From NCBI RefSeq assembly GCF_044704955.1, contig NC_091984.1, forward strand, positions 179,552,001 to 179,616,000: a stretch of 64,000 bases of DNA, in the 5' to 3' direction. The position numbers and the translations under genes are program-made. A model generated the notes under the pieces. It worked only from the letters and a program-made list of their open reading frames with translations. It had not been told where the DNA came from and ran no database searches. This stretch comes from Pristiophorus japonicus. Taxonomy: Eukaryota. Positions 4,883 through 53,480 of the stretch are shown in pieces; position 1 is the first letter of the stretch; every line of letters starts with the position of its first letter.

Positions 4883-5111
4883 TTAACACACCGGGGTGGC
4901 CGTTTTCTTTTCTCTGATTTCATCTGATGAAGGGGGAAGGATGTTCACTGAAGGGCCCCATGGATCTAGCAAAATGCAAGAGTGAGCGAAAATTCTCTCT
5001 TAGTTTCATATAAACAGTCGAAAATTAAGTCTTGGGTTTTCTATTTTTAACATTCAGCAAAACATTACAATGGAAGCTAATCAGCGCTCATTAAAGACAC
5101 ATAAACACCGG

Positions 5112-6620: not shown

Positions 6621-8001
6621 TACAGAGAAATATAGAAAATAGGTGTCACAATATGCCATTCGGCCCTTCGAGCCTGCACCACCATTCAATAAGATCATGG
6701 CTGATCATTCAACTCCGTACCCCTTTCCTGCTTTCTCTACATACCCCTTGATCTCTTTAGCTGTAAGGGCTATATCTAACTCCCTCTTGAATATATCCAA
6801 TGAACTGGCATCAATAACTCTCTGCGGCAGGGAATTCCACAGGGTTAACAACTCTCTGAGTGAAAAAGTTTCTCCTCATCTCAGTCCTAAATGGCCTACC
6901 CCGTATCCTAAGACTGTGTCCCCTGGTTCTGGACTTCCCCACCATCGGGAACATTCTTCCCGCATCTACCCTGTCCAGTCCCATCAGAATCTTATATGTT
7001 TCGATGAGATACACGCTCATCCTTTTAAACTCCATTGTATAAAGTCTCAGTTGATCCAGTCTCTCCTCATATGTCAGTCCAGCCATCCCTGGAATCAGTC
7101 TGGTGAACCTTCGCTGCACTCCCTCAATAGCAAGAACGTCCTTCCTCAGATTAGGAGACCAAAACTGAACACAATACTCCAGGTGAGGCCTCACCAAGGC
7201 CTTGTACAATTGCAGTAAGATTTCCCTGCTCCTATATTCAAATCCCCTAGCTATGAAGTCCAACATGCCATTTGCCTTCTTCACTGCCTGCTGTACCTGC
7301 ATGCCAACTTTCAATGACTGATGAACCATGACACCCAGGTCCCGTTACACCTCCCCTTTTTCCTAATCTGCCGCCATTCAGATAATATTCTGCCTTCGTG
7401 GTTTTGCCACCAAAGTGGATAACCTCACATTTATCCACATTATACTGCATCTGCCATGCATTTGCCCACTCACCTAACCTGTCCAAATCACCATGCAGCC
7501 TTTTAGCATCCTCCTCACAGCTCACACCGCCACCCAGTTTAGTGTCATCTGCAAACTTGGAGATATTACACTCAATTCCTTCATCCAAATCATTAATATA
7601 TATTGTAAAGAGCAGAGGTCCCAGCACTGAGCCCTGCGGCACTCCACTAGTCACTGGCTACCATTCCGAAAAGCACCCATTTATCCCAACTCTCTGCTTC
7701 CTGTCTGCCAACCAATTCTCTATCCATGCCAGTACATTACCCGCAACACCATGTGCTTTGATTTTGCACACCAATCTCTTATGTCGGAACTTGTCAAAGG
7801 CCTTTTGAAAGTCCAAATACACACATCCACTGGTTTTCCCTTGTCTACTCTACTAATTACATCCTCAAAAAATTCCAGATAATTTGTCAAGCATGATTTC
7901 CCTTTCATAAATCCATGCTGACTTGGACCGATCCTATCACTGTTTTCCAAATGCGCTGCTATTTCATCCTTAATAATTGATTCCAACATTTTCTCCACTA
8001 C
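6621..8001 (-). mobile_element. 5'-truncated CR1 LINE nested in the RTE
   Basis: RT motifs [25 protein letters not shown] (ORFs 7247-7654, 6811-7329, 7720-7998); frameshifted. Confidence 0.95.
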
Positions 8002-19125: not shown

Positions 19126-21424
19126 ATAGAAACATAGAAAACATAGAAAATAGGTGCAGGAGTAGGCCATTCGGCCCTTCCAGCCTGCACCGCCATTCAA
19201 TGAGTTAATGGCTGAACATTCAACTTCAGTACCCCATTCCTGCTTTCTCGCCATACCCCTTGATCCCCCGAGTAGTAAGGACCTCATCTAACTCCTTTTT
19301 GAATATATTTAGTGAATTGGCCTCAACAACTTTCTGTGGTAGAGAATTCGACAGGTTCACCACTCTCTGGGTGAAGAAGTTCCTCCGCATCTCGGTCCTA
19401 AATGGCTTCCCCCTTATCCTTAGACTGTGACCTCTGGTTCTGGACTTCCCCAACATTGGGAACATTCTTCCTGCATCTAATCTGTCTAAACCCGTCAGAA
19501 TTTTAAATGTTTCTATGAGGTCCCCTCTCATTCTTCTGAACTCCAGTGAATACAAGCCCAGTTGATCCAGTCTTTCTTGATAGGTCAGTCCCGCCATCCC
19601 GGGAATCAATCTGGTGAACCTTCGCTGCACTCCCTCAATAGCAAGAATGTCCTTCCTCAGGTTAGGAGACCAAAACTGTACACAATACTCCAGGTGTGGC
19701 CTCACCAAGGCCCTGTACAACTGTAGCAACACCTCCCTGCCCCTGTACTCAAATCCCCTTGCTATGAAGGCCAACATGCCATTTGCTTTCTTAACCGCCT
19801 GCTGCACCTGCATGCCAACCTTCAATGACTGATGTACCATGACACCCAGGTCTCTTTGCACCTCCCCTTTTCCTAATCTGTCACCATTCAGATAATAGTC
19901 TGTCTCTCTGTTTTTACCACCAAAGTGGATAACCTCACATTTATCCACATTATACTTCATCTGCCATGCATTTGCCCACTCACCTAACCTATCCAATTCG
20001 CTCTGCAGCCTAACAGCATCCTCCTCGCAGCTCACACTGCCACCCAACTTAGTGTCATCCGCAAATTTGGAGATACTACATTTAATCCCCTCATCTAAAT
20101 CATTAATGTACAGTGTAAACAGCTGGGGCCCCAGCACAGAACCTTGCGGTACCCCACTAGTCACTGCCTGCCATTCGGAAAAGTACCCATTTACTCCGAC
20201 TTTTTGCTTCCTGTCTGACAACCAGTTCTCAATCCATATCAGCACACTACCCCCAATCCCATGTGCTCTAACTTTGCACATCAATCTCGTGTGTGGGACC
20301 TTGTCGAATGCCTTCTGAAAGTCCAAATATATCACATCAACTGGTTCTCCCTTGTCCACTCTACTGGAAACATCCTCAAAAAATTCCAGAAGATTTGTCA
20401 AGCATGATTTCCCTTTCACAAATCCATGCTGACTTGGACCTATCATGTCACCAAATGCACTGCTATGACATCCTTAATAATTGATTCCATCATTTTACCC
20501 ACTACCGATGTCAGGCTGACCGGTCTATAATTTCCTGTTTTCTCTCTCCCTCCTTTTTTAAAAAGTGGGGTTACATTGGCTACCCTCCACTGTATAGGAA
20601 CTGATCCAGAGTCAATGGAATGTTGGAAAATGACTGTCAATGCATCCACTATTTCCAAGGCCACCTCCTTAAGTACTCTGGGATGCAGTCCATCAGGCCC
20701 TGGGGATTTATCGGCCTTCAATTCCATCAAATTCCCCAACACAATTTCCCGGCTAATAAGGATTTCCCTCAGTTCCTCCTCCTTACTAGACCCCCCGACC
20801 CCTTTTATAACCGGAAGGTTGTTTGTGTCCTCCTTCGTGAATACCGAACCAAAGTACTTGTTCAATTGGTCCGCCATTTCTTTGTTCCCCGTTATGACTT
20901 CCCCTGATTCTTACTGCAGGGGACCTACGTTTGTCTTACTAACCTTTTTCTCTTTACATATCTATAGAAACTTTTGCAATCCGTCTTAATGTTCCCTGCA
21001 AGCTTCTTCTCATACTCCATTTTCCCTGCCCTAATCAAACCCTTTGTCCTCCTCTGCTGAGTTCTAAATTTCTCCCAGTCCCCAAGTTCGCTGCTATTTC
21101 TGGCCAATTTGTATGCCACTTCCTTGGCTTTAATACTATCCCTGATTTTCCTTGATAGCCACGGTTGAGCCACCTTCCCTTTTTTATTTTTATACCAGAC
21201 AGGAATGTACAATTGTTGTAGTTCATCCATGCGGTCTCTAAATGTCTGCCATTGCCCATCCACAGTCAACCCCTTAAGTATCATTCGCCAATCCATCCCA
21301 GCCAATTCACGCCTCATACCTTCAAAGTTAGCCTTCTTTAAGTTCTGGACCATGGTCTCTGAATTAACTGTTTCATTCTCCATCCTAATGCAGAATTCAA
21401 CCATATTATGGTCACTCTTCCCCA
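19126..21424 (-). mobile_element. Young 5'-truncated CR1 (HER1-type) LINE
   Basis: 406-aa open RT segment 19226..20446 ([18 protein letters not shown]) plus upstream ORF2 pieces 20443-20877 and 20925-21425; (catagaaa)n tail at 19126-19150. Confidence 0.97.
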
Positions 21425-23190: not shown

Positions 23191-24195
23191 ATTGATGGAT
23201 AGATGGTGCATTGTGCGTGAGTCACAGATTGTTAACACGTTTATTGGGTATGAAGTGATTAGCGACCGTGTCATGATTTCCGGATTTGGTCCAGTCCAAT
23301 GATATCACTTGCCACACACGCACCGAGCTTTCCGAGAAATCAACCAGGTCTAGGAGGAGGAGTACTCGAACATAGTGTGGGTGTAACGGGGTGGGGTGGG
23401 AAGAAAATTTCATCTGGGCACAAACCAGAAGGAATTCCTCATATACTTCTGGAGTGAGGAGGAGGCACGTGAAAACTGTTTTGCAAGAATATGCAATAAA
23501 AATTAGGTTTCCGTTCAGGATCCCCTCAGATTTGTAAGAGAATGGATCAGGAATATCGATTAAATGCGTGATGCTTACTACCACTCATTTTGAATCATTA
23601 ACACCTATCCATTTAATTAACAATGATTAGTACACTGTTCTGTGCTAGTAGGACCATTCCCGAAGACTGTTGAAGCCAGTCACTCCTAAGATGGGCTGAG
23701 CACTAAGCGGAATTGAATCACGAGCATTTGCCGTATTTAACTATAGCTAACGAAGTACAAATTGCACTGTCATAAAGTCGAGAGACAGAAGCTAGAGTAA
23801 TATACTTCCAGAAGAATAACTAATATTTCAGATTAATCTATAGAGCCGAAATCATCTCGACGACAACATCTAACGAACTTTTTGTATTACAATATCTCAG
23901 TATCTCGTGTGTTAATTAGAATATCGGTAAACAGAACAATAGCCAAGATTGCTTCTCATGTTTTAAAACTTGTGAATGGGAGCGATGAACGCAGGACAGT
24001 AATATGAGTGTACTCGGGAAAGTGCTTAAGGAACCAGGACATGGAATTTAAGAACTGCCTTTTTGGTGTAATGATATAGCACTACAATTGCCCAAAACAC
24101 ACGCAGGTCTCAAAATGCCGAAAGCAATGCACGTAACTGCAAATACATATAGAATAAATAACAATTGCCGTGAGGTCCAGCAATCTATCTGTGGA

Positions 24196-24705
24196 GAAAC
24201 ATAGAAACATAGAAATTAGGTGCAGAAGCAGGCCATTCGGCCCTTCGAGCCTGCACCGCTATTCAATAAGATCATGGCTGATCATTCAACCTCAGTACCC
24301 TTTTCGTGCTTTCTCTCCATACCCCTCGATCCCTTGGGCTGTAAGGGCCACATCTAACTCTCTTTTGAATATATCTAATGAACTGGCCTCAACAACTTTC
24401 TGCGGTAGAGAATTCCACAGGTTAACCACTCTCTGAGTGAAGAAGTTTCTCCTCGTCTCGGTCCTAAATGGTTTACCCCTTATTCTTAGACTGTGACCCT
24501 GGTTCTGGAACTCCCCAGTAATGGGAACATTCTTCCTGCCTCTAACCTGTCCAATCCCATCAGAATTGTATATGTTTCTATGAGATCCCCTCTCATTCTT
24601 CTAAACTCCAGTGGATACAAGCCCAGTTGATCCAGTCTCTCCTCATACGTTACTCCTGCCATCCCGGGAAACAAGTCTGGTGAACCTTCGCTGTACTCCC
24701 TCAAC
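24196..24705 (-). mobile_element. CR1 3' fragment (same subfamily as 19126-21424)
   Basis: (gaaacata)n tail; highly similar to 19130-19640. Confidence 0.93.
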
Positions 24706-26935: not shown

Positions 26936-27435
26936 TTATAAGTCGTGTTTATTGACCTTGTGGGATTTTAAAAATTAGTTCTTCATCCGCGATGAGCATT
27001 ACATGTTAAGCAGGATAAGGAGATATGCGGACATGCCAATTGTTTCTCAATGCAGGGATTGAATCTCGAACTTGATCTCTCGAGACTGAACAATAAAAAT
27101 CTTGTTTCTCTCATTTCTTCAAAGACACATTGGGTCAAATTGCACTGTGTAGTTTTGCAACATCTACCTTTCAACTTTGCAGAAAATTAATTTGGCCGTC
27201 ACTTTAACAGATTTTAAATAGTGTAACGTCTCTGTTAAATAGCAATCAATGGAATTTCATGTGAAACCATTCAGAGTCTGCAGAGTCTCCATGAGCAAGG
27301 TAATTTCATCTCAACTGTTTCTGCATGTCATGAATGAGTATACTATTGAAAAAAATATATTGGCAAAAATTCGTTTTATGCAAACGTCAATCAAACCAAT
27401 TTCAAGGATCCAATAAACGGCCGCGACGTATAGAA

Positions 27436-27443
27436 ATTTGCAT
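27436..27443 (+). promoter_or_regulatory. Ig light-chain promoter octamer ATTTGCAT
   Basis: Perfect octamer in light-chain orientation ~110 bp upstream of the leader ATG; a degenerate ATGCAAAC lies at ~27378. Confidence 0.85.
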
Positions 27444-27553
27444 AAATAATGTGACCCCTGTACATGCTTTTAGAGAGATTTTGACGAGTACGGCATCATT
27501 GGGTTCGTGTCGGACACAGTTTGTTTTGATCTTGATTTTTAAAAATCAACACA

Positions 27554-27602
27554 ATGAGTGAGTGGCTTCATGTTCTTGCCGCCCTCATGCTTTGTTTGCA
27601 AT
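27554..27602 (+). pseudogene. IGLV: Ig light-chain leader (L1) exon
   Basis: ATG AGT GAG TGG... = MSEWLHVLAALMLCLQ, then a phase-1 donor T|gtaggt; splices in frame to the acceptor at 27865/27866. Confidence 0.88.
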
Positions 27603-27865
27603 GTAGGTACAGGGCTGTAAAATTCTTCAATATTCCTGCTCTTTTATGACACTGATCGTTTGCTGTACTTGAGCTGAACGGATCTGAATTACTATTTGTT
27701 TCCACATGGCCATTTATTAAATCCTTGGAATTGGTCTGATTGGTGTTTCATAAAGCGAATTTTTGCCAGTTTTTCTTACAATACTAGACTCATTCACTAC
27801 ATGCAGAAACAGGTGAGCTGAAATTTTGCTGACGGTCACTTATTAATCACTTGTTATTTCTCCAG

Positions 27866-28194
27866 GTACCAACGCGGGTACTCTGCTCACTCAGCCACCG
27901 TCCATCTCAACTTCACCGGGAAAAACCGTCAAAATCACTTGCACCCAATCCGGAGGCTGCGTGGGCAGCTGCTACACCAGCTGGTACTGGCAGAAACAGT
28001 GCCCCTGCCTTTGTTTGGAGGGACTCTCATTCGAGGAGAGGTGCGGGGATTCCTGAGCGATTTATTGGATCCAGGGACAGGTCGAGCAACGTCATGTGTT
28101 TAACCATCAGCAATGTCCAATCCGGGGATGCGCCAGTTATTACTGTGGTGCCTGGGATAACAATGGTGATGAATTCACTTTCGGGAAAGGAACT
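27866..28194 (+). pseudogene. IGLV: Germline-joined lambda (type II) VJ exon, 5' part; frameshifted pseudogene
   Basis: ttatttctccag|GTACC: (C)[43 protein letters not shown] /fs ~27997/ [44 protein letters not shown] /fs ~28131/ ASYYCGAWDNNGDEFTFGKGT; no RSS between V and J; in-frame stop at 28054. Confidence 0.95.
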
Positions 28195-28462
28195 TGTCAT
28201 GTATCTCACACTACTGTATATAACTGTATCTTACCATGCTACACACGACTGTAACTAGATATGATCTGTAACCACAAGCATACTTTACCACCAGGGGTGC
28301 ACTTGCAGGAGACACTGCATACCTGTCCTACACAGGTATATAAAGGCTGGTCTCAGGCAAGTGTGGCACTCGATTGCTGTGAAATAAAGGTGCAGGTCCA
28401 GAGTGACCTTGACTTCAACATGTGCCTCGTGTAAGTCTGTACTGCAGGGTCACGACGTTATA
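28195..28462 (+). repeat. 5' LTR
   Basis: Starts TGTC; TATATAAA ~28337; AATAAA 28383-28388; directly repeated at 32618-32867. Confidence 0.95.
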
Positions 28463-28463
28463 G

Positions 28464-28482
28464 TGGTGACGAGTTACGGGAT
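28464..28482 (+). other. Primer-binding site, probably tRNA-Ser(GCU)
   Basis: tggtgacgagttacgggat immediately after the 5' LTR resembles the complement (TGGCGACGAG..GGGAT) of the vertebrate tRNA-Ser(GCU) 3' end. Confidence 0.65.
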
Positions 28483-28497
28483 CACAGAATCCACAGA

Positions 28498-31400
28498 ATG
28501 GCTACCAACCGCTCACATGAGAAATACAATGCTGCAGACAATTGGGAGCTCCAGCAAAGCTTTGTAACCAAAGACTGGTTGGGCGACGATATGGCAGACA
28601 AGAGAAGAGCCCATCTCTTGACCAGCTGTGGCTCGAAAACATACGCCTTAATGAAGGACCTGCTGGCACCCGAGAAACCAGCAAGCAAGTCATTTGAGGA
28701 GTTGAGCACACTGGTGAGAGACCACCTGAAGCCGGCGAGCAACCTACACATGGCTAGACACAGGTTCTACAACTGCAGACGCTGTGTGGGCCAGAGCATA
28801 CCCGACTTTGTGGCGGAACTTCGCAGGCTGGCTAGTTTATGTGAGTTCTCTGATGAACTAAGGAGAGAAGTACTGAGAGACTTTTTTATTGCAGGAATAG
28901 GCCACGCAGGCATATTCCGAAAGCTTATAGAGACCAAGAACTTGACCCTAGAGGCAGCAGCACTGGTCGCACAGACATTCTTGGCAGGAGAAGAAGAAAC
29001 GAAGTTGATCTATACTGCGGGTACGACAACTAGCAAAATATCGGAACAAGGGGTTCACAGCGTGAAACAAGCCACTACCCCCACACACAGACAAAGGCAG
29101 GAGAGCAGGCCTTCAACAGCAGGCAGTGGCGCCAGAAGCCATCAAGGGCAACATGAACGGTCACACCTCATCAACGCATAATGCGAGCAATCAACTACAG
29201 ACTGAGAGAAGCTCAAGAGAGATCAGCCAGGCGCAGCTCATCCTTCAGAAACAATGGAAGCGGTCTGTGCTGGAGATGTGGGGGAAGGCACTCAACAAGG
29301 GGGTGTCGATTTCAGCATGCTGTTTGCAGAAACTGCAACTATACAGGGCATCTGGCTCGCATGTGCAGAAAAACAGCAGCTCGGCTGGTATATGAATCGG
29401 AAGGGTCGGAAAGCGGACCAGAAGATGGTGGGGACAGTGCCCGGGACACCGAGGTACAGCAGGTCAACACGATCAATGTCCACTGTTCTTACAACAAGAC
29501 ACCTCCAATAATGATGAAGGTCCTACTCAATGGAATACCCGTCAACATGGAACTGGACATGGGAGCTAGTCAATCTCTCATGAGCATCCAACAATTTGAA
29601 CAGCTGTGGCCGCACAAAAGCAACAGACCAAAACTCACAAGGATCAACACCAAACTAAGGACCTATACCAAAGAAATCGTCCCAGTTCTTGGCAGCGCCA
29701 TGCTCTCAGTCACACACAAAGGGACAGTGAACCCACTTCCCCTGTGGAATGTCCCCGGAGATCTCCCAGCACTGTTGGGGAGAAGCTGGCTGGCAAAACT
29801 AAATTGGAAATGGGATGATGTTCACGCCATGTTGTCAGCGGAATGGACCTCCTGCTCAACAGTTCTAAGTCATTTTGAACATCTTTATCAGCTAGGTGTG
29901 GGCACCTTCAAAGGGGCTAAAGTTAAAATATACATCACACAGGAAGCCAGACCGGTCCATCACAAGGCTAGAGCTGTGTCTTATGTGATAAGGGAAAATA
30001 TTGAACACAAACTGGACTGGCTTCTGCGGGAAGGCATTATCTCACCCATGGAAGTTAGCGACTGGGCAAGTCCCATCATCCCCATCATGAAGCCTGATGG
30101 ATCTGTACGAATCTGTGGGGATTACAAGTCTACCATAAACAGAGTCTCCCTACAGGACCAATACCCGCTGCCCATGGCGGAGGACCTATTTTCCACATTG
30201 GCTGGAGGAAAACTTTTCTCGAAACTAGATCTCACATCTGCGCATATGACGCAAGAACTGACCAAAGAGTCTAAGCTATTCACCACCACCAACACACATC
30301 GAGGCCTTTTCATGTACAATCGATGCCAATTCGGCATCAGGTCGGCAGCTGCTATATTCCAGCGTAATATGGAGAGTCTGCTCAAGTCCATCCCGGGGAC
30401 GGTTGTGTTTCAAGATGACATACTCATCACAGGCAGTGATACCGACTCCCATCTCCGCAATTTGGAGGAAGTACTAAGTCGATTCGATCGGGTCGGCCTA
30501 AGAGTTAAGAAATCCAAGTGTCTGTTTCTCGTGCCCGAGGTTGAATTTTTAGGCAGAAGGATTGCCGCTGATGGAATCCGCCCAACAGAATCCAAAACCG
30601 AAGCAATTCGTCTGGCACCCAGGCCCCAGAATGTCTCGGAACTGCACACCTTCCTCAGGATACTCAATTACTTTGGGAACTTTATGCAGAACTTGAGCAC
30701 ACTGCTGGAGCCTCTCCACGTGCGACTCAGAAAGGGGTGCGATTGGTTTTGGGGAGACGCCCAAGAACGCGCCTTCAATAAGGCATGCAACCTTCTATGT
30801 TCCAACAGTGTCTTAGCCTTTTTTGACCCAGGTAAAAAGCTAGTTCTTACATGTGATGCATCAGCGTATGTGGTCTGGTGCGTTTTAAAGCATGTCAATG
30901 GTGCGGGTAAATTACAACCCATTGCTTATGCCTCCAAGTCACTTTTGCGGGTGGAGCGTGAGTACGGTATGGTTGAGAAGGAGGCGCTCGCGTGCGTGTA
31001 CAGTATCAAAAAGATGGACCAATTCCTTTTCTGGGCCAAGTTCGCATTAGAAACCGAATACAAACCCCTCACATACCTGCTATCCGAGTGCAAGGCAATA
31101 AACGCCAACGCCTCAGCACGCATTCAGTAGTGGGCACTCATGCTGGTGTCTTACGAATACACAATAAGGCACAGACCGGGCACAGACAACTGTGCTGACG
31201 CGCTTAGCAGGCTACCCCTGGCGACCACGGAAGGGTCCAATGAACAGGACTGTGAGATGGTCATGGCAATCAATGTCTTTGAATCCACAGGTGCGCCGAT
31301 GACGGCTCGCCATATCAGAGCCTTGCCGACCAGCGACCCCAAATTATCCTTCGTCAAAAGATGTGTTTTAACTGGTGACTGGGCAGAGGCTCGCGATGCC

Positions 31401-32539
31401 TGCCCCGAAGAGATCAAACCTTTCCATAGGCGCATGCATGAACTATCACTACAGACAGACTGCTTGATGTGGGGCAGCCGAGTAGTTATGCCCTTGTGAG
31501 GCAGAGAGGCGTTTGTCTGGGAGCTCCACCGCGAGCACCCGGGGATCATCTTTATGAAGGCCATAGTCAGATCCCACGTCTGGTGGCCTGACATTGACGC
31601 AGACTTGGAGCTCTGCGTCCTGCGGTGCACCATTTGTGTCCAACTCAGTAATGCCCCCAGGGCAAAATGGGCAAAATTTTCCTCATAGTCGTCGATGCAT
31701 TTTCAAAGTGGATCGATTGCGCCATTTTAAACTCGAGCACCACCTCCACCACTGTGGAGAGCCTTAGAACCATGTTTGCAATGCACGGAATTCCTGACAT
31801 ATTGGTCAGTGATAATGGTCCGTGCTTCACCAGTGCAGAATTTCACGATTTTATAGTTGACCACGGCATAAATCACGTTAAGACAGCACCATTCAAGCCA
31901 GCCTCCAATGGCCAGGCGGAGCGAGCATTGCAAATCATTAAACAAGGCATGCGAAAAATCCAAGGTCCCACGCTGCAGAGCTGCCTGTCGCGACTGCTGC
32001 TGGCATACAGATCTCGACCGCGTTCGTTGACTGGGGTTCCCCTATTGATGAAACGGACCTTAAAGACTAGGCTCTCGTTAATCCTCCCAGACACGCATGA
32101 AATTTTTGAGGCAAAGCACCGGAAGCTAACTGAGTACCATGACCGAAATTCGAGGGGGAGGTGGAATGAGATAGGGGTTAAAGTGTTTGTGCTAAACTAT
32201 GGCAGGGGCCCCAAATGGCTTGCAGGGACAGTAACAGGCAAGGAAGGAAACAGGCTACTGGTTGTACAAATGGACAATGGCCAAACCTGCCGGAGGCATT
32301 TAGACGAAGTAAAAAGTAAATTCACCAACAACCCTGAAGAACCAGAGGCAGACTACAATGTGGAACTCACACCACACCTGGTGGACAGACAGAGGGAACA
32401 ACCTGAGGAAAGGGCAGTCTCAACAGACAGCCCAGGCGAGATACCAGCAATCATATTGAACGAAACAGACAGTACAGGTGAGATACCAGCAATCACACCG
32501 AAAGAAAAACAGGCACCAAGGCGAACAACTGAACCATAA
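28498..32539 (+). pseudogene. Gypsy gag-pol (Gag, double CCHC knuckle, aspartic protease, RT, RNase H, integrase), broken by frameshifts/stops
   Basis: ORFs 28498-29181, 29181-31130 (CWRCG..H...C, C..C...GH....C, LDMGAS, RICGDYK, FQDD, CDAS), 31140-31499 (ADALSRLP), 31667-32539 (VDAFSKW, SDNGPCF, SNGQAER). Confidence 0.95.
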
Positions 32540-32617
32540 CTAAGACGCTCCATGCTGGAGCGTAGACCACCTGAGAGTCTGAATCTATAAAGAAAATAAG
32601 ACCTTGGGGGTGAGTGA

Positions 32618-32867
32618 TGTCTGTATAACTGTATCTTACCATGCTATACATGACTGTAACTAGATATGACCTGTAACCACAAGCATACTTTACCACCAGG
32701 GGTGCACTTGTAGGAGACACTGCATACCTGTCCTACACAGGTATATAAAGGCAGGTCTCACGCAAGTGTGGCACTCGAGAGCTGTGGAATAATGGTGCAG
32801 GTCCAGAGTGACCTTGACTTCAACATGTGCCTCGTGTAAGTCTGTACTGCAGGGTCAAGACTTTACA
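32618..32867 (+). repeat. 3' LTR
   Basis: Ends TTTACA; TATATAAA 32742-32749; poly(A) signal mutated (gaataat); short deletion at its 5' end relative to the 5' LTR. Confidence 0.95.
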
Positions 32868-32888
32868 GAACTAAATTGATTTTGGGCA
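32868..32888 (+). pseudogene. Remainder of the J segment with intact splice donor
   Basis: (GA)ACT AAA TTG ATT TTG GGC A|gtaagt = (T)KLILG, completing FGKGTKLILG; phase-1 donor compatible with the C exon. Confidence 0.92.
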
Positions 32889-33258
32889 GTAAGTAAATTT
32901 TTAGCTATATACTTCTGGGATTTTTGAATTGCGAGTTTTCAATTGTTGGCTTAATCCGGTTGTAGCGAAAATGCTTTCGAACATACATTTATAATTCTCC
33001 GAAACTCTCTTGGTGTTTAGAAGGAGATTTACTGTTTGTCAGATGCAAGAATGTCGCACAACACTTACAATGTTATGGATAAACTGCAGAAATCTTCCGA
33101 ATATTTTTTGGGGGTGGATGCAGTTTCGTGTTACTTGCTGATTTGAAACATATTTGTAAAGCTTAGGTCAATCTGCATGAGACAGCATTTAAAAGTATCC
33201 GGACCCTTGTGATTGAATTACATTGTCCTCCTGTTGTAATTAATAACTTGTGTAGAGC

Positions 33259-33315
33259 TATATATACATCTATATATATATATATATATATATATTTACA
33301 GGTATAGATATATAT
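33259..33315. repeat. (TA)n microsatellite
   Basis: tatatatatatatatatatatata run. Confidence 0.95.
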
Positions 33316-33319
33316 AATC

Positions 33320-36300
33320 ATAAAATCGTACAGCATGGAAGGAAGCCATTCGGCACAACAAGCCTGTACCGGTTCTTTGAAAGCTATCTAATGAGGCCAA
33401 CTTCCCTGCTCTTTTCCCATAGCCCTGCATGTCTGTCCTGTTCAGGTGTTTATCCAATTCCCTATTGCATCGGCTTCCATCACCCGTTCACGCAATACAT
33501 TCCAGATCTTAACATCGCTGCGTGAAAAAAAATCTCATCTCCTCTCTGGTTCTTTCGCCAATTACATTCCACCTGTCTCCTCTGGTTATCGACCCTCCAG
33601 TCAGAGATTTTATGTTTAATATTCTGTTAACCGAATGCTTGTAAGACTGTTACACAGCCATCGCAATGTTATGAATGAAGTGCTAAAATCTTGCGAATAT
33701 TTTATGATTGGTACAATTGAGTCTGCTCCAGTTTCGTTATAATTACTTACTGATTTGTAACATATTCGTACACAAGTGAAAACTTTAACGTGAAATGTTT
33801 TATAATTATCCTGATACAATGCCATTAAACATCCTCAATCAGAGAGTTGGAACGCATGTGGTTTCTGAGGAGACTCATTCATTGATCTTTAAGCTCATCG
33901 GAAAGTGCTCACTTACTTCGACATTCCCAGTGTTGTAGAAACATAGAAACATAGAAAATACTTGTAGGAGTAGGCCATTCTGCCCTGCGATCCTGCACCA
34001 CCATTCAATATGATCATGGCTGATCATTTTTGCAACTTTAGTACCGCATACCTGCTTTCTCTCCATATCCCTTGATCCCTTTAGCCGTAAGGGCCACATC
34101 TAACTCCCTTTTGAATATATCTAACGAATTGATCTCAACAACTTTCTGTGGTAGAGAATTCCACAGGTTCACAATTCTCTGAGTGAAGAAGTTTCTCCTC
34201 ATCATGGTTCTAAATGATTTGCCCCTTTCCCTTAGACTGTGACCCCTGGTTCTGGACTTCCCCAATATCGGGAAGATTCTTCCTGCACCTAACCTGTCCA
34301 ATCCCGTCAGAATTTGATATGTTTCTATGAGATCCCTTCTCATTCTTCTAAATTCCAGTGAATATAAGCCTAGTCGATCCAGTCTTTCTTCATATGTCAG
34401 TCCTGCCAACCCGGGAACCAGTCTGATGAACCTTCACTGCACTCGCTCAATAGCAAGAATGTCCTTCCTCAGATTAGGAGACCAAAACTGTACACAATAT
34501 TCAAGGTGTGGCCTTACCAAGACCCTGTACAACTGCAGCAAGACCTCTCTGCTCCTGTACTCAAATCCTCTCGCTATGAAGACCAACATGCTATTTACCG
34601 TCTTCACCGCCTGCTGTACCTGCATGCCAACATTTGATGACTGATGAACCAGGTCTCATTGCACCTCCCCTTTTCCTAATCTGTCACCATTCAGATAATA
34701 TTCTGCCCTCCTGTTTTTGCCAGCAAAATGGATAACCTCACATTTATCTACATTATACTGCCATGCATTTGCCCACTCACCTAAACTGTCCAAGTCACTC
34801 TGCAGCCTCTTAGCATCCTCCTAACAGCTCACACTGCCACGCAACTTGGAGATATTACATTCAATTCCTTCGTCTAAATCATGCTGGCCATTAAGTCACA
34901 ATTTCAATCATAATGAACTAATAACTATAATACATACTGATAAGTTAGAAATGCTTGATCTGTATGAAACACTAGTTCGGACACAGCTAGAGTACTGCGT
35001 GCAGTTCTGGTCGCCACATTACAGGAAGGTTGTGACTGCACTGGAGAGGGTTCAGAGGAGATTTACGAGAATGTTGCTGGGAGTGGAGAATCTTAGTTAT
35101 GAGGACAGATTGGATAGGCTGGGTTTGTTTTCCTTGGAACAGAGGAGTTGGAGAGGAGACCTCATTGAGGTGTATAAAATTATGAGGGGCCTAGATATAG
35201 TGGATAAAGAGGGCCTATTTCCCTTAGCAGGTCAACAACCAGGGAGCATAAATTTAAAGTAATTGGTAGAAGATTTAGAGGGGATTTCAGGAGAAATTTC
35301 TTCGCCCAGAGGGTTGTGGGGGTCTGGAACTCACTGCCTGAAAAGGTGGTAGAGGCGGAAACCCCCACCATATTTAAAAAGTACTTGGATGTGCACTTGA
35401 CATGCTGTAACCTACAGGGCTATGGACCTGGAGCTGGAAAGTGGGATTAGGCTGGATAGCCTCTTTTTGGCCGGCACGGACACGATGGGCCAAAATGGCC
35501 TTCCTCCATGCTGTAAATTTCTATGATTCTATGATTTTATGAAATGGTAATATAAATTGTGCATTTTAAGAAAGTGATGTTCTTTTTCGCGGGTATCAGT
35601 GATAAGGTGTGATTCGAAGTTGGTTGCCTTTGGAAGGGCTTTATGGATGGAGATGTTCATTTTATGCCTTGTATCGACCTGTGTTATGAAGGAAAATTGA
35701 AACTATTGGGTTTAGCGAGATTCGTTTCAGTAGGTCAAATGATGCGCCCTGAGCTACTATGCCCTCCTTGGTTGATCGCCTTCAAGAGTCCTGGAGACAT
35801 TTTCCAGAGCTCTCCCGGAATTGACCACATCTTTTTCGCTGTTTTGGCTCCCCAGATAAGTGTAAGGGAGGTTGGTGCATAAGTGTATATCCTCAGCAAT
35901 CTGACGTTCCAGCTCATCTTCTTTTCCTATGTTCGTATGTTTTAGTATTGCAATAAAAATCGGTGATTGATCCCGCGCCGATACTATAACCATTAACAAC
36001 TCGTTACCTTCCAATATGATTCAGTTTGTATGAATACTACCACGGAAGTATAATTCTGATAATATTTGTTCCTGTTTTTTAAATAAATTTTTTTCTGTCA
36101 GTTAGAAAGTGCAACCGTACAAATATTCCATGATACTCAAAGGGCATTTTGATTTGATTAATAAGCTGCATGTTGTAGAAACGTTCTTTCAGTTTCTTAT
36201 ATCTTGTTCCATTAAAGTTACATAGTGCGCAAAATTCAAAAACAATTTTAACGAAGAAGGAGATTATACTTTAGATGTATTTACACTTCTGGTGATTGGT

Positions 36301-36680
36301 TTGTCTCAGTTGGTAAATTTCTCAAGTTTGGATCAAAGCATTTTGAATTTAATCCCCTGTTCCAGAATTTACATCAGAATATAGGAGTCGGCTATCGGAC
36401 CCCACGGGATTATTCATCACTATTGGATGATGGCGGATTAGTGCCTCAGCTCAATTTACCCACCTTTGCTCCCTATCCCTTGATACCCGCAGCTTACAAA
36501 AATCTATTTCAGTCTTGAAAATTTAAATTGACTCAGCATCCACAGTCATTTTGGGGAGAGAGTTCCAGAGTTACATCACACTTCGTGTCAAAAAATGCTG
36601 CCTCATTTCACTCCTTAATGGCCTAGCTCAAAATTTAAGATAATGCCCCCTTGTTCTGGATTTCCACAACAAAGGGAAAG
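33320..36680. mobile_element. Cluster of CR1 fragments in the J-C intron (33320-33600 -, 33937-34880 -, 34945-35540 +, 36375-36680 -)
   Basis: CR1 ORF2 C-terminal peptides (ORFs 34038-34409, 34434-34625, 34846-35262) and 8-nt microsatellite tails. Confidence 0.88.
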
Positions 36681-37069
36681 TGGTATGGAAGGGGGCAGTG
36701 CAGCATGGTCAGCAGTGCTTTCCTTTGGAAATAGGGGTCCCAACTTTCTGTTCAAGTAGACATTAACGATCCGCTTGCATCATTCGAAGAAGAGCAGGAA
36801 GTCACAGACAATACCCACAAACCCACCTCAATGATTGGCTCCAAAGAAATGGTGTCTGTAGCTTTATGCTTTGTCACGTTTACCATCACTGTGCATCAAA
36901 GTAATACATGGGAGATCTGATTTGGTGCTAAATAAATGCTATTCAATGTTTTTATAGTAATATAAAAAAATAGAAGTAGCTGCTCTTTCTGCAGCAGATA
37001 ATTCATAATGTGACTAGGCAGCCAAAAACCGAATATGATGAAGCCAAGACAGGTGCACGGAGTTAAAAT

Positions 37070-37600
37070 ATAAAAGGAAAAAATGCTGAAAATCTCAGCG
37101 GGTCAGGCAGCATCTGTGGAGAGAAAAACAGAGCCAACGTTTCATGTCGTTGATCCTTCGTCAGAACAGGCTGGTGTTGGAGGCTGAGGACGGAATTGTT
37201 GGAGTGGGAGTGGAGCGGGTAAGCTCGGGGTCGCCTTTGTTGACTGAACGGAGGTGGTCCGCAAAGTGGTCATAATGTAGCACATCATGAGCAGTGAATA
37301 CAGTGTGCTAAATTTAAGGAAGTATACTAAATACTTTCAATTTAGTATACTGTAGTCGCTGCTCGCGATGTGGTCACCTCTACATTGGGGAGACAAAATG
37401 CAAGGGTGACCCCGAGCTTCCAGTGGCCTGTCACTTTAATTCTCCACTTCCCTTCCACTCCAACATCTCCATCCTCGGCCTCCTACACTATTCCAATGAA
37501 GCTCAACGCAAGCTAGAAGAACAGCATCTCAACTTTCGTTTTCTTACTTTACAGCCTTCTGGACTCAACATCGAGTTCAATCATTTCAGGCTACAAACTC
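37070..37600. mobile_element. Penelope-like element fragment with fold-back (inverted) structure
   Basis: GIY-YIG peptide 'C.RCG.LYIGET.C...VACHFNS...ILGLLH...QRKLEEQHL.FR..TLQPSGLNIEF' on + (37340-37590); inverted copy plus hammerhead-bearing end on - (37075-37330). Confidence 0.8.
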
Positions 37601-37639
37601 TGCACATATTTGGTTCCCTTTCCTCCTATTTCGGCCCTG

Positions 37640-38170
37640 GCTGCAGTATGTGTCCCATTCTGGGCATCACACTTGAGGAAGGACGTGAAGGCTTTGGAGA
37701 GGGTACAGAAGACATTTACCAGAATACTTCCAGGGATGAAGGATTACAGTTACGAGAATAGACTAGAGAAGCTGAGGGTTATTCTCCTTGCAGTAGAGAA
37801 GGCTAACAGGAGATTTCGTAGCTTCCTTAAAATCATGAAGGGTTTAGAGTAAGTAAAGAGAAACTCTTCACATGGCTAAAGAATTAATAACCAGAGAGTA
37901 CATATATAAGGTGATTGACAACAGAACCAGAGGCGACATGAGGAAAACATTTTAACACAACGAGTGGTTAGGATTTGGAATGTACTGCTTGGTAGGGTGC
38001 AGCTTCAATAATAGCCTTCGAAAAGGAACTAGATAAATCCTTGAAGATGAAATATATGCATGGTTGTGGGGAAAGAGCAGGGGAGTGGGACTAGATGGAT
38101 TAATCTTCAAAACAGCTGGTGCAGACTCAGTAGTCTGAACGACATTCTTCCATGCTTTATTATTCTATGA
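37640..38170 (+). mobile_element. CR1 3' fragment
   Basis: 'FWASHLRKDVKALERVQK.FTRILPGM'; tail ttctatga. Confidence 0.85.
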
Positions 38171-38405
38171 TGCTATTGCGTAGCATTTACATCAAACAGC
38201 GTCGGGAGCGAGACTCTGGCAGAGTGCAATGTTTGACCCAGCATTCAAAGAATATTATACTGAAAACGTTAAATAGGCTGGGACTTTGAAAAATTGAACA
38301 GGCTGATGCTCTTTCTCTAGAAAAAAAGTCTGAGGGGTAATAAAGGTTATTAAAATTATGAATGGGTTTGATAGGGTAGACGTGGAGATGTTTCCATTTG
38401 TGGGG

Positions 38406-38915
38406 TGTAGATTTTCTGAATCTTTGCGACCCTTTTACTCCTGAGTCCAAACGATTCCACTTGACCGGTATTGGTGACAGTAATTTTATTTTATTCATTG
38501 TAAGTGAGACTTGGTGCATTACAACATCTGAGCGGTAATTAAACAAGGCGCAATCACATTTAAATTGCCCATAATGACCTGGGTGGAAACCTCGATCCTC
38601 ACGAGTCGACCCCAGGCGACCCTGGACTCGAAGCTCACTCATCCCCAGCGTGAGGCATGTGGTTCCTCCGCTGATCTGAATCCCCCCCCCCCCCCCTCAG
38701 TTCAGCTGGTGGATGTTGCCAAGCGCTTTGCCGAATGCCTCTCCAACCTCAATATCAGAGGGCCCCCTTTTTATATGCTTACTCTCATTCAAAACCCATG
38801 GAGTCCATCTGCAACCAATCACTGGCCAACACCCCAAAGCTAAAATCTAATCATAAAGATGCCATGTCCGCAGCACCATAACTTATACAGGTTCGAGTCT
38901 TATGATACCCTTACA
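38406..38915 (-). mobile_element. Possible solo LTR (antisense) upstream of the C exon
   Basis: TGTAG...CTTACA termini; on the - strand a TATA-like ATATAAAA (~38770) precedes AATAAA (~38490); no TSD found. Confidence 0.4.
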
Positions 38916-39135
38916 TCATCTGTTTTTGACCATCCAGAATTATATCTGAGATAGCCATGGCAACGCAAACAAAGTATGTCTCCAGAGTGTCCTTGTCGTT
39001 TGCCTATCGTAACATTCTTAGGCGTGTACAGTGCTACCGAGCTTTCAAACTTCGAAAAAGTAAAACGTTGAATTTCGACTTTTTACATTCAATTCAAAGT
39101 GGGTCTTCGCGGGTTATTTCTACTGTTCGTTCCAG

Positions 39136-39450
39136 ATCCACGGACCCCCGCAGTGGCCGTCCTTCCACCTTCATCGGATCAAATCGCAGCAAATAACATG
39201 GTGACCCTGGTGTGTTTGGTTTATCCCGGACGCTGCGGAGATTGAGTGGACTGTAGACCGTATTGTGAGAGGGATTGGTGTTGATACCAGTCGTATCCAG
39301 CAGGAGACGGACAACACGTTCAGTGGGACCAGTTATCTGATTCTGCCATCCTCAGAGTGGAACTCACACGAGCTTTACTCCTGTGTGGTTAAACACGAGA
39401 CTCAGGCAAACCCGCTTCGATCAAGCATCGCGAGATCCAGCGGTATCTGA
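39136..39450 (+). pseudogene. IGLC: Ig light-chain (lambda/type II) constant exon, frameshifted
   Basis: gttcgttccag|ATCCA: (N)PRTPAVAVLPPSSDQIAANNMVTLVCLV /deletion+fs ~39220/ AAEIEWTVDRIVRGIGVDTSRIQQETDNTFSGTSYLILPSSEWNSHELYSCVVKHETQANPLRSSIARSSGI*; ATTAAA at 39486. Confidence 0.95.
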
Positions 39451-40634
39451 TTCAAGAATCTGATGCAATCGTCTTTTATATCATTATTAAAATTTATTTG
39501 AACTAAGTTCGCTTTGAACGGCTAGATGTTTAATTTTAATTGCTGTATTTCAATTCATAGCAATAATTGTGCAGTTAGTGTGTTTGCTTGAATCCACTGG
39601 GTGTAATTAAGAGTGTGTTGACTCTGCAGTCATCACTTCTTCTCTATCAACAGGAATGCTGCAGAGTAATACAATTACTGTTATTCTGCCTTAGATTATG
39701 TCACTATTTTCTTCCTGTAATTATCTCCGAAATTTTTACAATTTTAAAACATCAAAATCGCGATTTTCAGTTTTTTTTCTGTAAATTTACATAAAACCGC
39801 CAAACTGTCTATCTCCCCCTTAAATATATTCAATGACCCAGCCTCCATAGCTCTCTGGAGCAGAGTATTCCATAGATTTACAACCCTCTGAGAGGAGAAA
39901 TTCCTCCTCATCTCAGTTTTAAATGGACAGCCCCTTATTCTGAGACTCTGGGGTTAGACTTCCCATTGTTTTTGCATGCATACCGCCCACTTAACTCCAT
40001 TTGAGGTGAAGTATAATGAGGTATAACGCTGAGATACCGCCCATTTAGCCATAAAATGGAAGCTAATGGCCATTTCTCGGTCATCTATCGTCCAACGTTA
40101 CTTTCGGCATGTATTAATGGCGATAAAAAAACTATACCGCCCGCCCACTTCTTTGGGGTGGAAACTTCAGAATTGGCGAACCCAAGACCCATAATATCAC
40201 CCAGCGTTTACTTTCAGCATGTAATTAACGCCGAGATTCAATAATGTCGCCCGCCCACGTTTTTTTGTCATAAGGATCAAATTTGCTGAAACTAACGCCC
40301 AGAATATCGCACAGCGTTATTTAAGCACTTCGTACACATATCGCCCTCAATCTCGCTTGCTGAAAAAAACGCTGTGAAAAAGTTGAACTGACCTGTACTC
40401 ATCACAGCGGTGTGGACGCCATTTTGTAAATCGCAGGTTGCTTCATTTAAAAGACTGCTTCAACTTCTGGGAAGTTTGGATGTACTCTGGATGTACTCTG
40501 GACTTCTTTAAAGATGATGTGACCATCTGAATAAACATCTTTATCATACTGTGGACGATTGGAACTTATTTAGGTGTCTTAGTAGGGACATTTATTGCTT
40601 GTGAACAATCGGTATTATACTGATAGTTATTGGA

Positions 40635-48779: not shown

Positions 48780-51700
48780 AGAGATAAAAACAGAACATGC
48801 TGGAAACTTCAGCGGGTCAGGCAGCATCTATGGAGAGAAGCATAAGTCAACGTTTTGGGTCTGTGAGCCATCGTCAGAACTGGAAACATTCAAAATGTAA
48901 CAGATTGTTAAGGGAGTGCAAAATGCCCTGAAAGGCGAGGGGAGTGAAGACTGTGATAGGGTGGAAGACAGGAGTGATTTGAGAGACAAAAGGGATGAAG
49001 GCCAAATTGAGATGCTATTGGCACAAGTTAAGAAACAAAAGATGAGTCTAGATGGGGTGTGAATGGCAGAATAATTACCAGCAACCATGGGAAAGAAAGA
49101 AAAAATAAATAAAAATGGGACATTTTGTAAAAATAAAAGGGAAGAAAAGGAACAAAATATGGTCAGAAGTTATGGTCAGAATTGTTGTAATCCAGAAGGC
49201 TGAAAAGGGCCGAACCAAAATGCTGTTCCTCAAGCTTGCATTGAGCTTAATTGGAACAGTGTAGGACGCCGAGGACGGAGAGGTCAGAGTGGGAGTGGAG
49301 AATTAAAGTGACAGGTGATCAGAAACTCGTGATCATGCTTACCGACTGAACAAAGGTGTTCTGCGAAGCGGTCACCCAATCTGCGTTTTCTCTATCCAAT
49401 GTCTGAGGGGGAGTGTTTGCTAGTGCTGTTGGGGAGGAGTTAAACTAATATGGCAGGAGGGTGGGAACCAATGCAGGGAGACCGAGGGAAACAAAATGGA
49501 GACAAAAGCAAAAGACAGAAAGGAGATGAGTAAAAGTGGAGGGCAGAGAAACCCAAGGCAAAAAACAAAAAGGGCCACTGTACAGCAAAATTCTAAAGGG
49601 TCAAAGTGTAATAAAAAGGCAACCATGAAAGCTCGGTGCCTCAATTCAAGGAGTATTTGGAACACAGGAGAGGGCTCTGAGCTAGTTAGAGTGGGTGAGA
49701 GCTCAGATGAACAGGACCCCAAGAAAGAATGCAAGAGGCAGGACGCAACAGAGCAGAGTAGCACTGGGGTAAGTGTAAACAACAAGGTGATAGGAAGGGA
49801 CAATATGTATGAATATAAAGGGGCTGCAGGAGGGGTCAAAACTAAAAATCATGGTTTAAAAACTAGTTTTAAAACACTCTACCTAAACGCACGCAGCATT
49901 CGAAACAAAGTAAATGAGTTGATGGCACAAATCATTACAAATGGGTATGATTTGGTGGCCATTACAAAAACGTGGTTGCAGTGTGGCCAAGAATGGGAAT
50001 TAAACATACAGGGGTATCTGACAATTCGGAAAGATAGACAAGGGAAAGGAGGTGGGGTAGCTCTGTTAATAAAAGATGATATCAGGGCAGTTGTGAGAGA
50101 CGATATTGGCTCTAATGAACAAAATGTTGAATCATTGTGGGTGAAGATTAGAGATAGTAAGGGGAAAAAGTCACTGGTGGGCATAGTTTATAGGCCACCA
50201 AATAATAACTTCATGGTGGGGTGGGCAATAATCAAGGGAATAATGGAGGCATGTGAAAAAGGAACGGCAGTAATCATGAGGGATTTTAACCTAGATATCA
50301 ATTGGTCAAATCAAATCGCACGGGGTAGCCTTGAGGAGGAATTCATAGAATGCATACGGGATTGTTTCTTAGAACAGTATGTTACAGAACCTACAAGGCA
50401 GCAAGCTATCTTAGATCTGGTCCTGTGTAATGAGACAGGAATAATAAACGATCTCCAAGTAAAAGATCCTCTCGGAATGAGTGATCACAGCATAGTTGAA
50501 TTTGTAATACAGATTGAGGGTGAGGAAGTAGTGTCTCAAACGAGCGTACTATGCTTAAACAAAGGGGGCTAGAGTGGGATGAGGGCAGAGTTGGCTAAAG
50601 TAGACTGGCAACACAGACTAAACGGTGGCACAATTGAGGAACAGTGGAGGACCTTTAAGGAGGTCTTTCATAGTGCTCAACAAAAATATATTCCAGTGAA
50701 AAAAAAGGGCGGTAAGAGAAGGGATAACCAGCTGTGGATAACCAAGGAAATAAAGGAGAGTATCAAATTAAAAACCAATGCAATAAGGTGGCCAAGGTTA
50801 GTGGGAAACTAGCAGATTGGGAAAATTTTAAACGACAGCAAAGAATGACTAAGAAAGCAATAAAGAAAGGAAAGATAGATTACGAAGGTAAACTTGCGTA
50901 AAACATAAAAACAGATAGTAAAAGCTTTTACCGATATATAAAACGGAAAAGAGTGACTAAAGTAAATGTTGGTCCCTTAGAAGATGAGAAGGGGGATTTA
51001 ATAATGGGAAATGTGGAAATGGCTGAGACCTTAAACAATTATTTTGCTTCGGTCTTCACAGTGGAAGACACAAAAACCATGCCACAAATTGCTGGTCACG
51101 GGAATATGGGAAGGGAGGACCTTGAGATAATCACTGTCACTAGGGGGGTAGTGCTGGACAGGCTAATGGGACTCAATGTAGACAAGTCCCCTGGTCCTGA
51201 TGATATGCATCCCAGGGTATTAAAAGAGATGGCGGAAGTTATAGCAGATGCATTCGTTATAATCTACCAAAATTCTTTGGAATCTGGGGAGGTACCAGCG
51301 GATTGGAAAGCAGCTAATGTAACGCCTCTGTTTAAAAAAGGGGGCAGAAAAAAGGCAGGTAACTATAGGCCAGTGAGTTTAACATCTGTAGTGGGGAAAA
51401 TGCTTGAAGCTATCATTAAGAAAGAAATAGCGGGACATCTAGATAGGAATAGCACAATCAAGCAGACGCAACATGGATTCATGAAGGGGAAATCATGTTT
51501 AACTAATTTACTGGAATTCTTTGAAGATATAACGAGCATGGTGGATAGAGGTGTACCGATGGATGTGGTGTATTTAGATTTCCAAAAGGCATTCGATAAG
51601 GTGCCACACAAAAGGTTACTGCAGAAGATAAAGGTACGTGGAGTCAGAGGAAATGTATTAGCATGGATAGAGAATTGGCTAGCTAACAGAAAGCAGAGAG

Positions 51701-53480
51701 TCGGGATAAATGGGTCCTTTTCGGGTTGGAAATCGGTGATTAGTGGTGTGCCACAGGAATCGGTGCTGGGACCACAACTGTTTACAATATACATAGATGA
51801 CCTGGAAGAGGGGATGGAGTGTAGTGCAACAAAATTTGCAGATGACAGAAAGATTAGTGGGAAAGCGGGTTGTGTAGAGGATACAGAGAGGCTGCAAAGA
51901 GATTTAGATAGGTTAAGCGAATGGGCAAAGGTTTGGCAGATGGAATACAATGTCGGAAAATGTGAGGTTATCCACCTTGGAAAAAAAACATTAAAAGCGA
52001 ATATTATTTGAATGGGGAGAAATTACAACATGCTGCGGTGCAGAGGGACCTTGGGGTCCTTGTGCATGAATCCCAAAAAGTTAGTTTGCAGGTGCAGCAG
52101 GTAATCAGGAAGGCGAATGGAATGTTGGCCTTCATTGCGAAAGGGATGGAGTACAAAAGCAGGGAGGTCCTGCTGCAACTGTATAGGGTATTGGTGAGGC
52201 CGCACCTGGAGTACTGCATGCAGTTTTGGTCACCTTACTTAAGGAAGGATATACTAGCTTTGGAGGGGGTACAGAGACGATTCACTAGGCTGATTCCGGA
52301 GATGAGAGGGTTACCTTATGATGACAGATTGAGTAGACTGGGTCTTTACTCGTTGGAGTTCAGAAGGATGAGGGGTGATCTTATAGAAACATTTAAAATA
52401 ATGAAAGGGATAGACAAGATAGAGGCAGAGATGTTGTTCCCACTGGTCGGGGAGACTAGAACTAGGGGGCACAGCCTCAAAATACGGGGGAGCCAATTTA
52501 AAACCCAGTTGAGAAGGAATTTCTTCTCCCAGAGGGTTGTGAATCTGTGGAATTCTCTGCCCAAGGAAGCAGTTGAGGCTAGCTCATTGAATGTATTCAA
52601 ATCACAGATAGATAGATTTTTAACCAATAAGGAAATTAAGGGTTACGGGGAGCGGGCGGGTAAGTGGAGCTGAGTCCACGGCCAGATCAGCCATGATCTT
52701 GTTGAATGGCGGAGCAGGTTCGAGGGGCTAGATGGCCTATTCCTGTTCCTAATTCTTATGTTCTTATGTAAGAGACCATATCGTGAGCAGCGAATACAAT
52801 ATACTGAATTGAAAGAAGTACAAGCAAATTGCTGTTTCACCTAGAAGGAGTGCTGGGGCCCTCGAAAGTGAGAAGGGTGGAGGTAAAAGGGCAGGTGTTG
52901 CATCTCTTGCACAGGAAGGTGCCGTAGGGAGGGGAGGGGTTTCTGGGGGTGATTCCAGAATGGACCAGGGTGTCTCGGAGGGAGCTGTCCCTTCGGAATG
53001 ATGCGAGGGCATGGAAAGATGTGATTGGTGCTGGGATCACACTGGAGTAGGCGGAAATGGAGGAGGATGATCCGTTGAAAGTGGAAGTTGGTGGGTTGAA
53101 AGGTGAACCCTGTCGTGGTTCTGGGAGGGAGGGGAAGGGGAGAGACCAAAAGTGCTAGAAATAGAATGCGCATGGTGAAAGGCCATGTTATCCACAGTGG
53201 AGGGGAATCCTCGGATGAGGAAAAAGGAAGACATATCAGAGGCACCAGTGTGGAAGGTGGCATCGTCAGAACAGATGCGATGGAGACATAGAAACTGGGA
53301 GAATGGAATGGATGCTGGCTGGGAGGAAGTGTAGTCCAATTAACTGTGGGAGTCAGTGGGATTACAGTGAATGTTTGTCAATAGTCTATTGCCAGAAATG
53401 GAGACAGAGAAGTCGAGGAATGGAAGGGAAGAATCGGAGATAGACCATGGGAAGGTGAGGGAACGGTGGAAATTTATTGA
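48780..53480 (-). mobile_element. Penelope-like element split by a CR1 insertion (48780-49402 + 52769-53480)
   Basis: ORF 53037..53339 'DYTSS...SIPFSQFL.L.RICSDD..F......MSSFF..RGFP'; CxxC..C linker; GIY-YIG region continuous across the CR1 (ccaatgt^aagagacc); hammerhead-type end at 48850-48880. Confidence 0.85.
49403..52768 (+). mobile_element. Near-complete ORF2 CR1 LINE with end of ORF1, apparently chimeric
   Basis: APE (49496-50572), RT (50953-52011, 52008-52673), (ttcttatg)n tail; duplicated APE N-terminal motif. Confidence 0.95.

Follow-up and report, generated by a model that had tools for sequence, protein, structure and literature searches.

The stretch analyzed here (hereafter the window) comprises 64,000 nt of contig NC_091984.1 of Pristiophorus japonicus (assembly GCF_044704955.1, positions 179,552,001 to 179,616,000, forward strand) and contains an immunoglobulin (Ig) light-chain gene interrupted by a long terminal repeat (LTR) retrotransposon. 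We are confident that this shark gene is a lambda (type II) copy, now broken, in which the variable (V) and joining (J) segments were fused in inherited DNA, likely before the main shark lineages separated, and that a Gypsy-type element later inserted into its J, likely by chance.

All parts of the gene lie on the plus strand. The light-chain promoter octamer ATTTGCAT (27436..27443) stands 118 bp upstream of the ATG of a leader exon (27554..27602), which ends in phase 1 at a GT donor and can be aligned with the leaders of two shark proteins, P0007 and P0002. The 5' part of the joined V-J exon (27866..28194) is preceded by AG and reads across the fusion as YYC-GAWDNNGDEFT-FGKGT, where GAWDNNGDEFT is the third complementarity-determining region (CDR3). 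The remainder of J, encoding KLILG (32873..32888), resumes beyond the retrotransposon and is followed by a GTAAGT donor. After a J-C intron of 6,247 bp (32889..39135), at least 41% of which consists of repeats that also occur in other parts of the window, comes a lambda constant (C) exon (39136..39453; Pfam C1-set, E 5.7e-10). GT and AG are present at the true splice ends of all exons. Thus, the gene has the layout of a lambda cluster, with a single V, a single J and a single C accompanied by a leader, an octamer and canonical splice sites. As is characteristic of lambda (type II) genes, V and J are fused with no recombination signal sequence (RSS) between them; a scan of the 64-kb window for 12/23 RSSs gave one degenerate match (12351) and none in the gene. 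A first-pass annotation of the window had already described the octamer, the leader, the RSS-free fusion and a KLILG-gtaagt boundary with a C exon 6.2 kb downstream, and all of these are borne out.

The same annotation had proposed in silico excision of the element, followed by alignment with type II sequences, as a check on the identity of the gene. With the element excised and the exons spliced, the restored product aligns over its whole length with shark lambda chains, sharing 183/237 residues (77%) with P0007 from Pristiophorus and 175/237 with P0002 from Heterodontus. A protein search with the C exon returned 118 candidates, of which 89 were matches at 60-84% identity; 84 of these bear the name of lambda or immunoglobulin light chains from sharks and rays, four are catshark hypothetical proteins and one is unnamed. 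The matches include the 'Ig lambda chain' of the sandbar shark, with 80% identity in C. In a phylogenetic tree, which had no kappa or sigma outgroup, the V of the window gene nests inside shark and ray lambda chains. Shorter queries were less informative: the short V pieces reached at best E 0.042 with Pfam V-set, under the cut-off, a protein search with a 46-residue V piece gave no candidate, and a 31-residue C piece searched against PDB matched generic mammalian Ig entries alone among the 60 shown. Lambda corresponds to type II, or NS3, and every such gene studied is germline-joined (PMC4279169, PMC5192425). Sequence comparison thus supports the assignment of the host gene to the germline-joined lambda (type II) clusters of cartilaginous fish, with which it shares the single V-J-C cluster, the fused V-J and the octamer promoter. 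It differs from them in being non-functional.

One reason for this is an element of 4,673 bp (28195-32867) inserted within FGKGT^KLILG. It is flanked by two copies of GAACT (28190..28194 and 32868..32872); two identical 5-bp sequences placed precisely at its ends would arise by chance about once in 1,000. A 5' LTR of 268 bp (28195..28462) is followed by a degenerate stretch resembling a primer-binding site (28463..28482), by a decayed gag-pol region (28498..32587), by a purine-rich tract (32595..32617) and by a 3' LTR of 250 bp (32618..32867), all in plus orientation. Pfam identifies in the gag-pol region gag, a zinc knuckle and a protease (RVP), each under the Pfam cut-off, and then reverse transcriptase (RVT_1), RNase H (RT_RNaseH) and integrase (rve), in the order protease-reverse transcriptase-RNase H-integrase typical of Gypsy elements. 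Paired LTRs, outer ends TG...CA and a 5-bp duplication are those of an LTR retrotransposon, much as the first-pass annotation had reported, except that the 5' LTR itself runs from TG to TA. The description of the element as a complete Gypsy holds for its list of parts and not for its coding capacity, since comparison with three intact relatives (tblastn) places two frame changes and two to three stops in gag-pol, which is no longer open.

Element relatives of at least 1,151 residues are single gag-pol proteins, several of them annotated 'K02A2.6-like', and the best is 51% identical in the length range searched, so that the family was matched to no named one. With these Ty3/Gypsy elements the window copy shares LTRs, the 5-bp duplication, the order of pol domains and the lack of env; they have single gag-pol open reading frames of about 1,150-1,450 aa, whereas the window copy is decayed. 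No named reference Gypsy element was among the protein matches; the family probably belongs to the Mag clade. An endogenous retrovirus was considered and rejected: with gag-pol homology ending at 32587 and the 3' LTR beginning at 32618, env would have no room between them. The element family is very abundant. Summed contig depth, which is no copy number, is ~2e5-9e5 on the element compared with 7-46 on its flanks. The commonest class of family contigs is 90-95% alike (17,168/40,729 in run X1), a divergence comparable in magnitude to that between the LTRs. The window copy may have suffered internal deletions, as suggested by the loose ends of family contigs at 28548 and 31662.

The target duplication stems from the staggered cut that integrase introduces into germ-line DNA, and the two LTRs are identical at insertion. 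In the window they differ at 13/250 aligned sites (six transitions and seven transversions; Kimura two-parameter distance 0.054, standard error 0.015), in agreement with an earlier count by eye of about 13 substitutions in about 245 bp; in addition, two gaps of 16 and 2 nt near the start of the 3' LTR set it apart from the 5' LTR. The first-pass conclusion that the insertion post-dates joining is correct, because the element splits a J that was already fused. Moreover, a fused exon that contains LTRs 5% apart was probably inherited through the germ line in its joined state. The target duplication begins 11 nt past the end of CDR3, and a distance of about 25 nt between the insertion and the fixed V-J joint is plausible, although the exact joint cannot be placed.

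The insertion is not the only lesion. Three frameshifts lie in the antibody exons, namely a 5-nt deletion at about 27997, a 1-nt deletion at about 28130 and an 8-nt deletion at about 39222-39225, and all four reference proteins place the same three. Removing 28195-32872, which had been said to restore the V-J exon, indeed makes it contiguous, but its frame stays shut: direct translation after excision meets a stop at codon 80, within V. In addition, the penultimate Cys of the C exon is replaced by Gly, so that the window copy has neither the open frame nor the C-terminal Cys of a functional gene. Since the frame stops inside V and J is severed from its splice donor, this gene has lost the capacity to produce a light chain. 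The Ig exons had zero cover in runs X5 and X6, which has no bearing on expression.

Paralogous contigs from the same species, 12.6-14.1% divergent from the window, retain the missing 5 nt and 1 nt. Both V deletions are therefore lesions of the window copy. The alignment of these contigs ends at 28189 or 28194, and the species thus seems to possess close paralogues that lack the insertion. Duplication of the lambda lineage in this species would have left one copy spare, and the spare copy was somewhat more likely than not in decay before the Gypsy-type element landed, likely by chance, in the J of the fused gene.

We lean, though mildly, towards this order of events. At columns conserved among intact relatives, 14/115 are changed in the window copy compared with 3.7 expected for an intact gene. 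The neutral change implied for the gene is about 4% per site (1.6-7.9%), compared with 2.6% per LTR (1.4-4.4%), although the ranges overlap. The excess is seen in J plus C (10 changes, 5.1 expected, P 0.037). The two C exons of the window (the second is described below) differ at 36/306 nt, with dN/dS, the ratio of nonsynonymous to synonymous rates, of 0.80 over 95 codons, indistinguishable from neutral. Finally, one contig piece (run X3, piece 13) aligns with 27997-28194 without gaps and with 28 differences, lacks the LTR and departs at the insertion site. It may share the 1-nt deletion at 28130 and, if so, the gene died before the insertion.

The strongest competitor differs in event order alone: the insertion would be the first lesion in a working gene, and the LTR distance would then date its inactivation exactly. 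We consider this a serious possibility, if the less probable of the two. The point estimates of change in gene and LTRs are unfavorable to it, as are the J plus C excess, the neutral-like dN/dS and the contig piece just described. Several observations nonetheless weigh in its favor and against prior decay. The pooled decay of 14/115 could have accumulated wholly after the insertion (P 0.16-0.19 at d=0.027). V alone has no excess, with four changes observed and 5.4 expected, and the J plus C excess falls to P 0.22 at the upper LTR bound. The three indels in 712 bp agree with the 2.8 expected from the indel rate of the LTR pair. In each region, one intact relative equals the change rate of the window copy (1/9 in V, 1/52 in J plus C). 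Because three frameshifts lie outside the insertion, the LTR distance gives the latest time of gene death and nothing tighter. The suggestion that the LTR pair provides a clock for inactivation was therefore overstated: it would apply only to a gene that was still free of lesions when the element landed, and three further frameshifts exist, with a suggested neutral change of about 4% against 2.6% per LTR in overlapping ranges.

Conversion of the LTR distance into years depends strongly on the rate. At 2.2e-10 per site per year, a value assumed rather than measured in a study of the elephant shark (Han 2015, PMC4422223), the insertion dates to 123 million years (Myr) ago (56-190). The mammalian rate gives 12 Myr. 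A pedigree rate of 7e-10 per generation (PMC10587355) gives about 39 million generations, or 270 Myr at a generation time of 7 years, generation times being assumptions. The spread of these dates identifies the rate as the weak link. LTR dating was likewise applied to endogenous elements of the elephant shark, with distances of 0.024-0.033 there compared with 0.054 here, but those elements are retroviruses with env (PMC4422223).

As a minimum age of the joined allele, which is how the first-pass annotation used it, the LTR distance is valid and weak, for the same V lineage and CDR3 class occur in seven species on both sides of the squalomorph/galeomorph split and provide a far older bound. In our main tree, built from leader plus V with CDR3 excluded (89 rows after one short row was dropped, 115 columns), the window gene falls within a clade of 10 rows with support of 100/99. 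The other nine members are proteins from seven species, belonging to Heptranchias, Pristiophorus, Heterodontus, Scyliorhinus (two species), Carcharodon and Mustelus. Inside the clade, the window gene groups with two squalomorph proteins (94/83), separate from the galeomorph ones (97/90). A tree of mature V only (47 of 90 rows) recovers the same 10-row clade with 97 in the Shimodaira-Hasegawa-like approximate likelihood ratio test. All nine clade relatives have an 11-residue CDR3, compared with 18/80 proteins outside the clade; since these rows are kin, the shared length counts as one inherited trait and not as nine trials. The seven relatives that were looked up are all 240 aa long. As one V clade and one CDR3 length span both sides of the squalomorph/galeomorph split, the V-J join is likely older than that split and would thus exceed 200 Myr in age. 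A recent preprint places the ancestor of non-hexanchiform sharks and rays at 256 Ma (212-312) and the hexanchiform split at 278-288 Ma, and mentions earlier Triassic estimates (10.64898/2026.02.13.705779). Next to this phylogenetic bound, the LTR bound of about 12-190 Myr, depending on the rate, is valid and adds nothing.

Two points weigh against such an age. Most relatives are proteins predicted from genomes, and their V-J continuity is that of gene models. Furthermore, CDR3 length shifts 13 times on the 47-row tree and so does not always track V. If the join were instead recent and lineage-specific, like those of some nurse shark NS4 genes, the LTR age would become an informative bound. Joins in NS4 (kappa, type III) were dated within 7-49 Myr by means of split relatives (Lee et al. 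2000, PMC2193156), and the central CDR3 residues of the window copy are unlike those of every relative (best match 7/11). NS4 genes resemble the window gene in their fused V-J, attributed to RAG in germ cells, and the age of the join was likewise asked there (PMC2193156). They belong, however, to another isotype and have split relatives, whereas lambda is without a known split member; for lambda, the attribution to RAG is carried over from NS4. With all studied lambda genes joined (PMC4279169, PMC5192425), a clade of seven species that mirrors the squalomorph/galeomorph split and a single CDR3 length in 9/9 relatives, a recent join is very improbable, and the join in the window appears far older than those of NS4.

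An ancient join raises a broader possibility, which we regard as only slightly better supported than its negation. An orthologous lambda lineage, recognizable by 240 aa and an 11-residue CDR3 with mostly Trp at position 3, may have kept a single germ-line join across squalomorphs and galeomorphs for more than 200 Myr, and would then encode a fixed, innate-like light chain. The lambda locus would consist of a few Permian-Triassic joins under selection, and the window would hold a dead duplicate, with the LTR clock bracketing the time of its loss. We found no report of an orthologous lambda lineage with a fixed CDR3 in a literature search that left most subscription-journal work on shark light chains outside its scope.

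Across proteins P0001-P0089, CDR3 lengths fall into four classes only (5, 8, 9 and 11). Alike junctions of five residues (FAGRT, FAART, YAART) and of nine residues (AVAKSGIVT, AVGRSGIYT) occur in both sharks and rays. V frameworks often cluster by species while junctions recur, a pattern that suggests ancient joins with V homogenised later.

We also considered whether the interrupted gene might be an assembly artefact, the product of rearrangement in somatic B cells or a copy retroposed from mRNA. Contigs of runs X1 and X3, which derive from one sample, possibly the source of the assembly itself, cover 27300-28209 with no differences; they thereby extend 15 nt into the LTR, under the 31 letters required for bridging a junction. 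The right junction is absent from the 32 contig pieces listed of 87,824, a point that counts against the locus as assembled, and none of the 15 joints listed of 42 skips exactly 28195-32872. Neither junction is therefore bridged by 31 letters in the listed contigs. On the other hand, an assembly artefact is unlikely because the duplication is perfect, at a chance of about 1e-3, and J resumes in register beyond it. A processed pseudogene was rejected since both introns are retained, and a somatic join was rejected since LTRs 5% apart inside the fused exon are hardly compatible with a somatic origin. Taken as a group, these explanations are very improbable.

The least probable explanation of all ties the insertion to RAG activity or to targeting of a site near the junction: a 5-bp duplication is also a hallmark of RAG transposition (PMC2193153) and the site is near CDR3, but the element ends in LTRs and not in RSSs, the cut lies in framework 4, 11-15 nt beyond CDR3 and off the V-J boundary, the event is single, the region is repeat-rich and the family very abundant. 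A RAG/Transib-type transposon was rejected for the same want of RSS-like ends.

Repeats occupy at least 35% of the window, and the interrupted J is not the only exon that they have struck. A second lambda C exon (3156-3783, minus strand), which shares 88% identity with the one at 39136, has a 1-nt deletion near its start and is split by a 3' fragment resembling a long interspersed nuclear element (LINE; about 3227-3539). In a region this rich in repeats and with a second split C exon, no targeting need be invoked for an insertion into an exon that is dead or spare. Adjoining the second C exon is the stub of a third (4886-4972, minus strand), which retains its first 29 codons and an intact acceptor and is cut by a repeat. 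The window contains no V for the second or third C exon and no J for the second. An octamer is present at 4567 on the minus strand, the same strand as the third stub.

Our reading of a broken lambda copy makes the locus likely an ordinary pseudogene of a known family, an instance of the decay of a spare gene copy. As a spare member of a multigene family struck by a common retrotransposon, it carries little weight by itself. A search of titles and abstract openings, with most subscription journals outside its scope, yielded no report of a shark lambda gene with an LTR insertion. The presence or absence of the insertion does serve as a clean marker of its carrier lineage, and typing of sister species would make it a check on neutral rates in sharks. 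Orthology across shark genomes offers a way to date lambda joins, and the conserved lineage with its fixed CDR3 is the better lead. If CDR3s have indeed been fixed for more than 200 Myr, this bears on a selected, innate-like role of pre-joined antibody genes.

Several further features of the window deserve mention. A 120-bp stretch upstream of the octamer (27302-27422) recurs inverted in the leader intron (27708-27825) at 82.6% identity; read depth is low there, which argues against a high-copy repeat, and the pair is possibly an old local inverted duplication. Rfam gave no matches in the window. A pair of direct repeats (49345-49657 and 53767-54079), 86% identical over 262 nt, lies 4,422 bp apart, and their inspected ends are unlike those of LTRs. 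Finally, numerous LINE-like 3' fragments, 61-94% alike, occur on both strands at 6622-7822, 19133-20431, 24192-24704, 33936-34882, 51469-52754 and 55554-56937.

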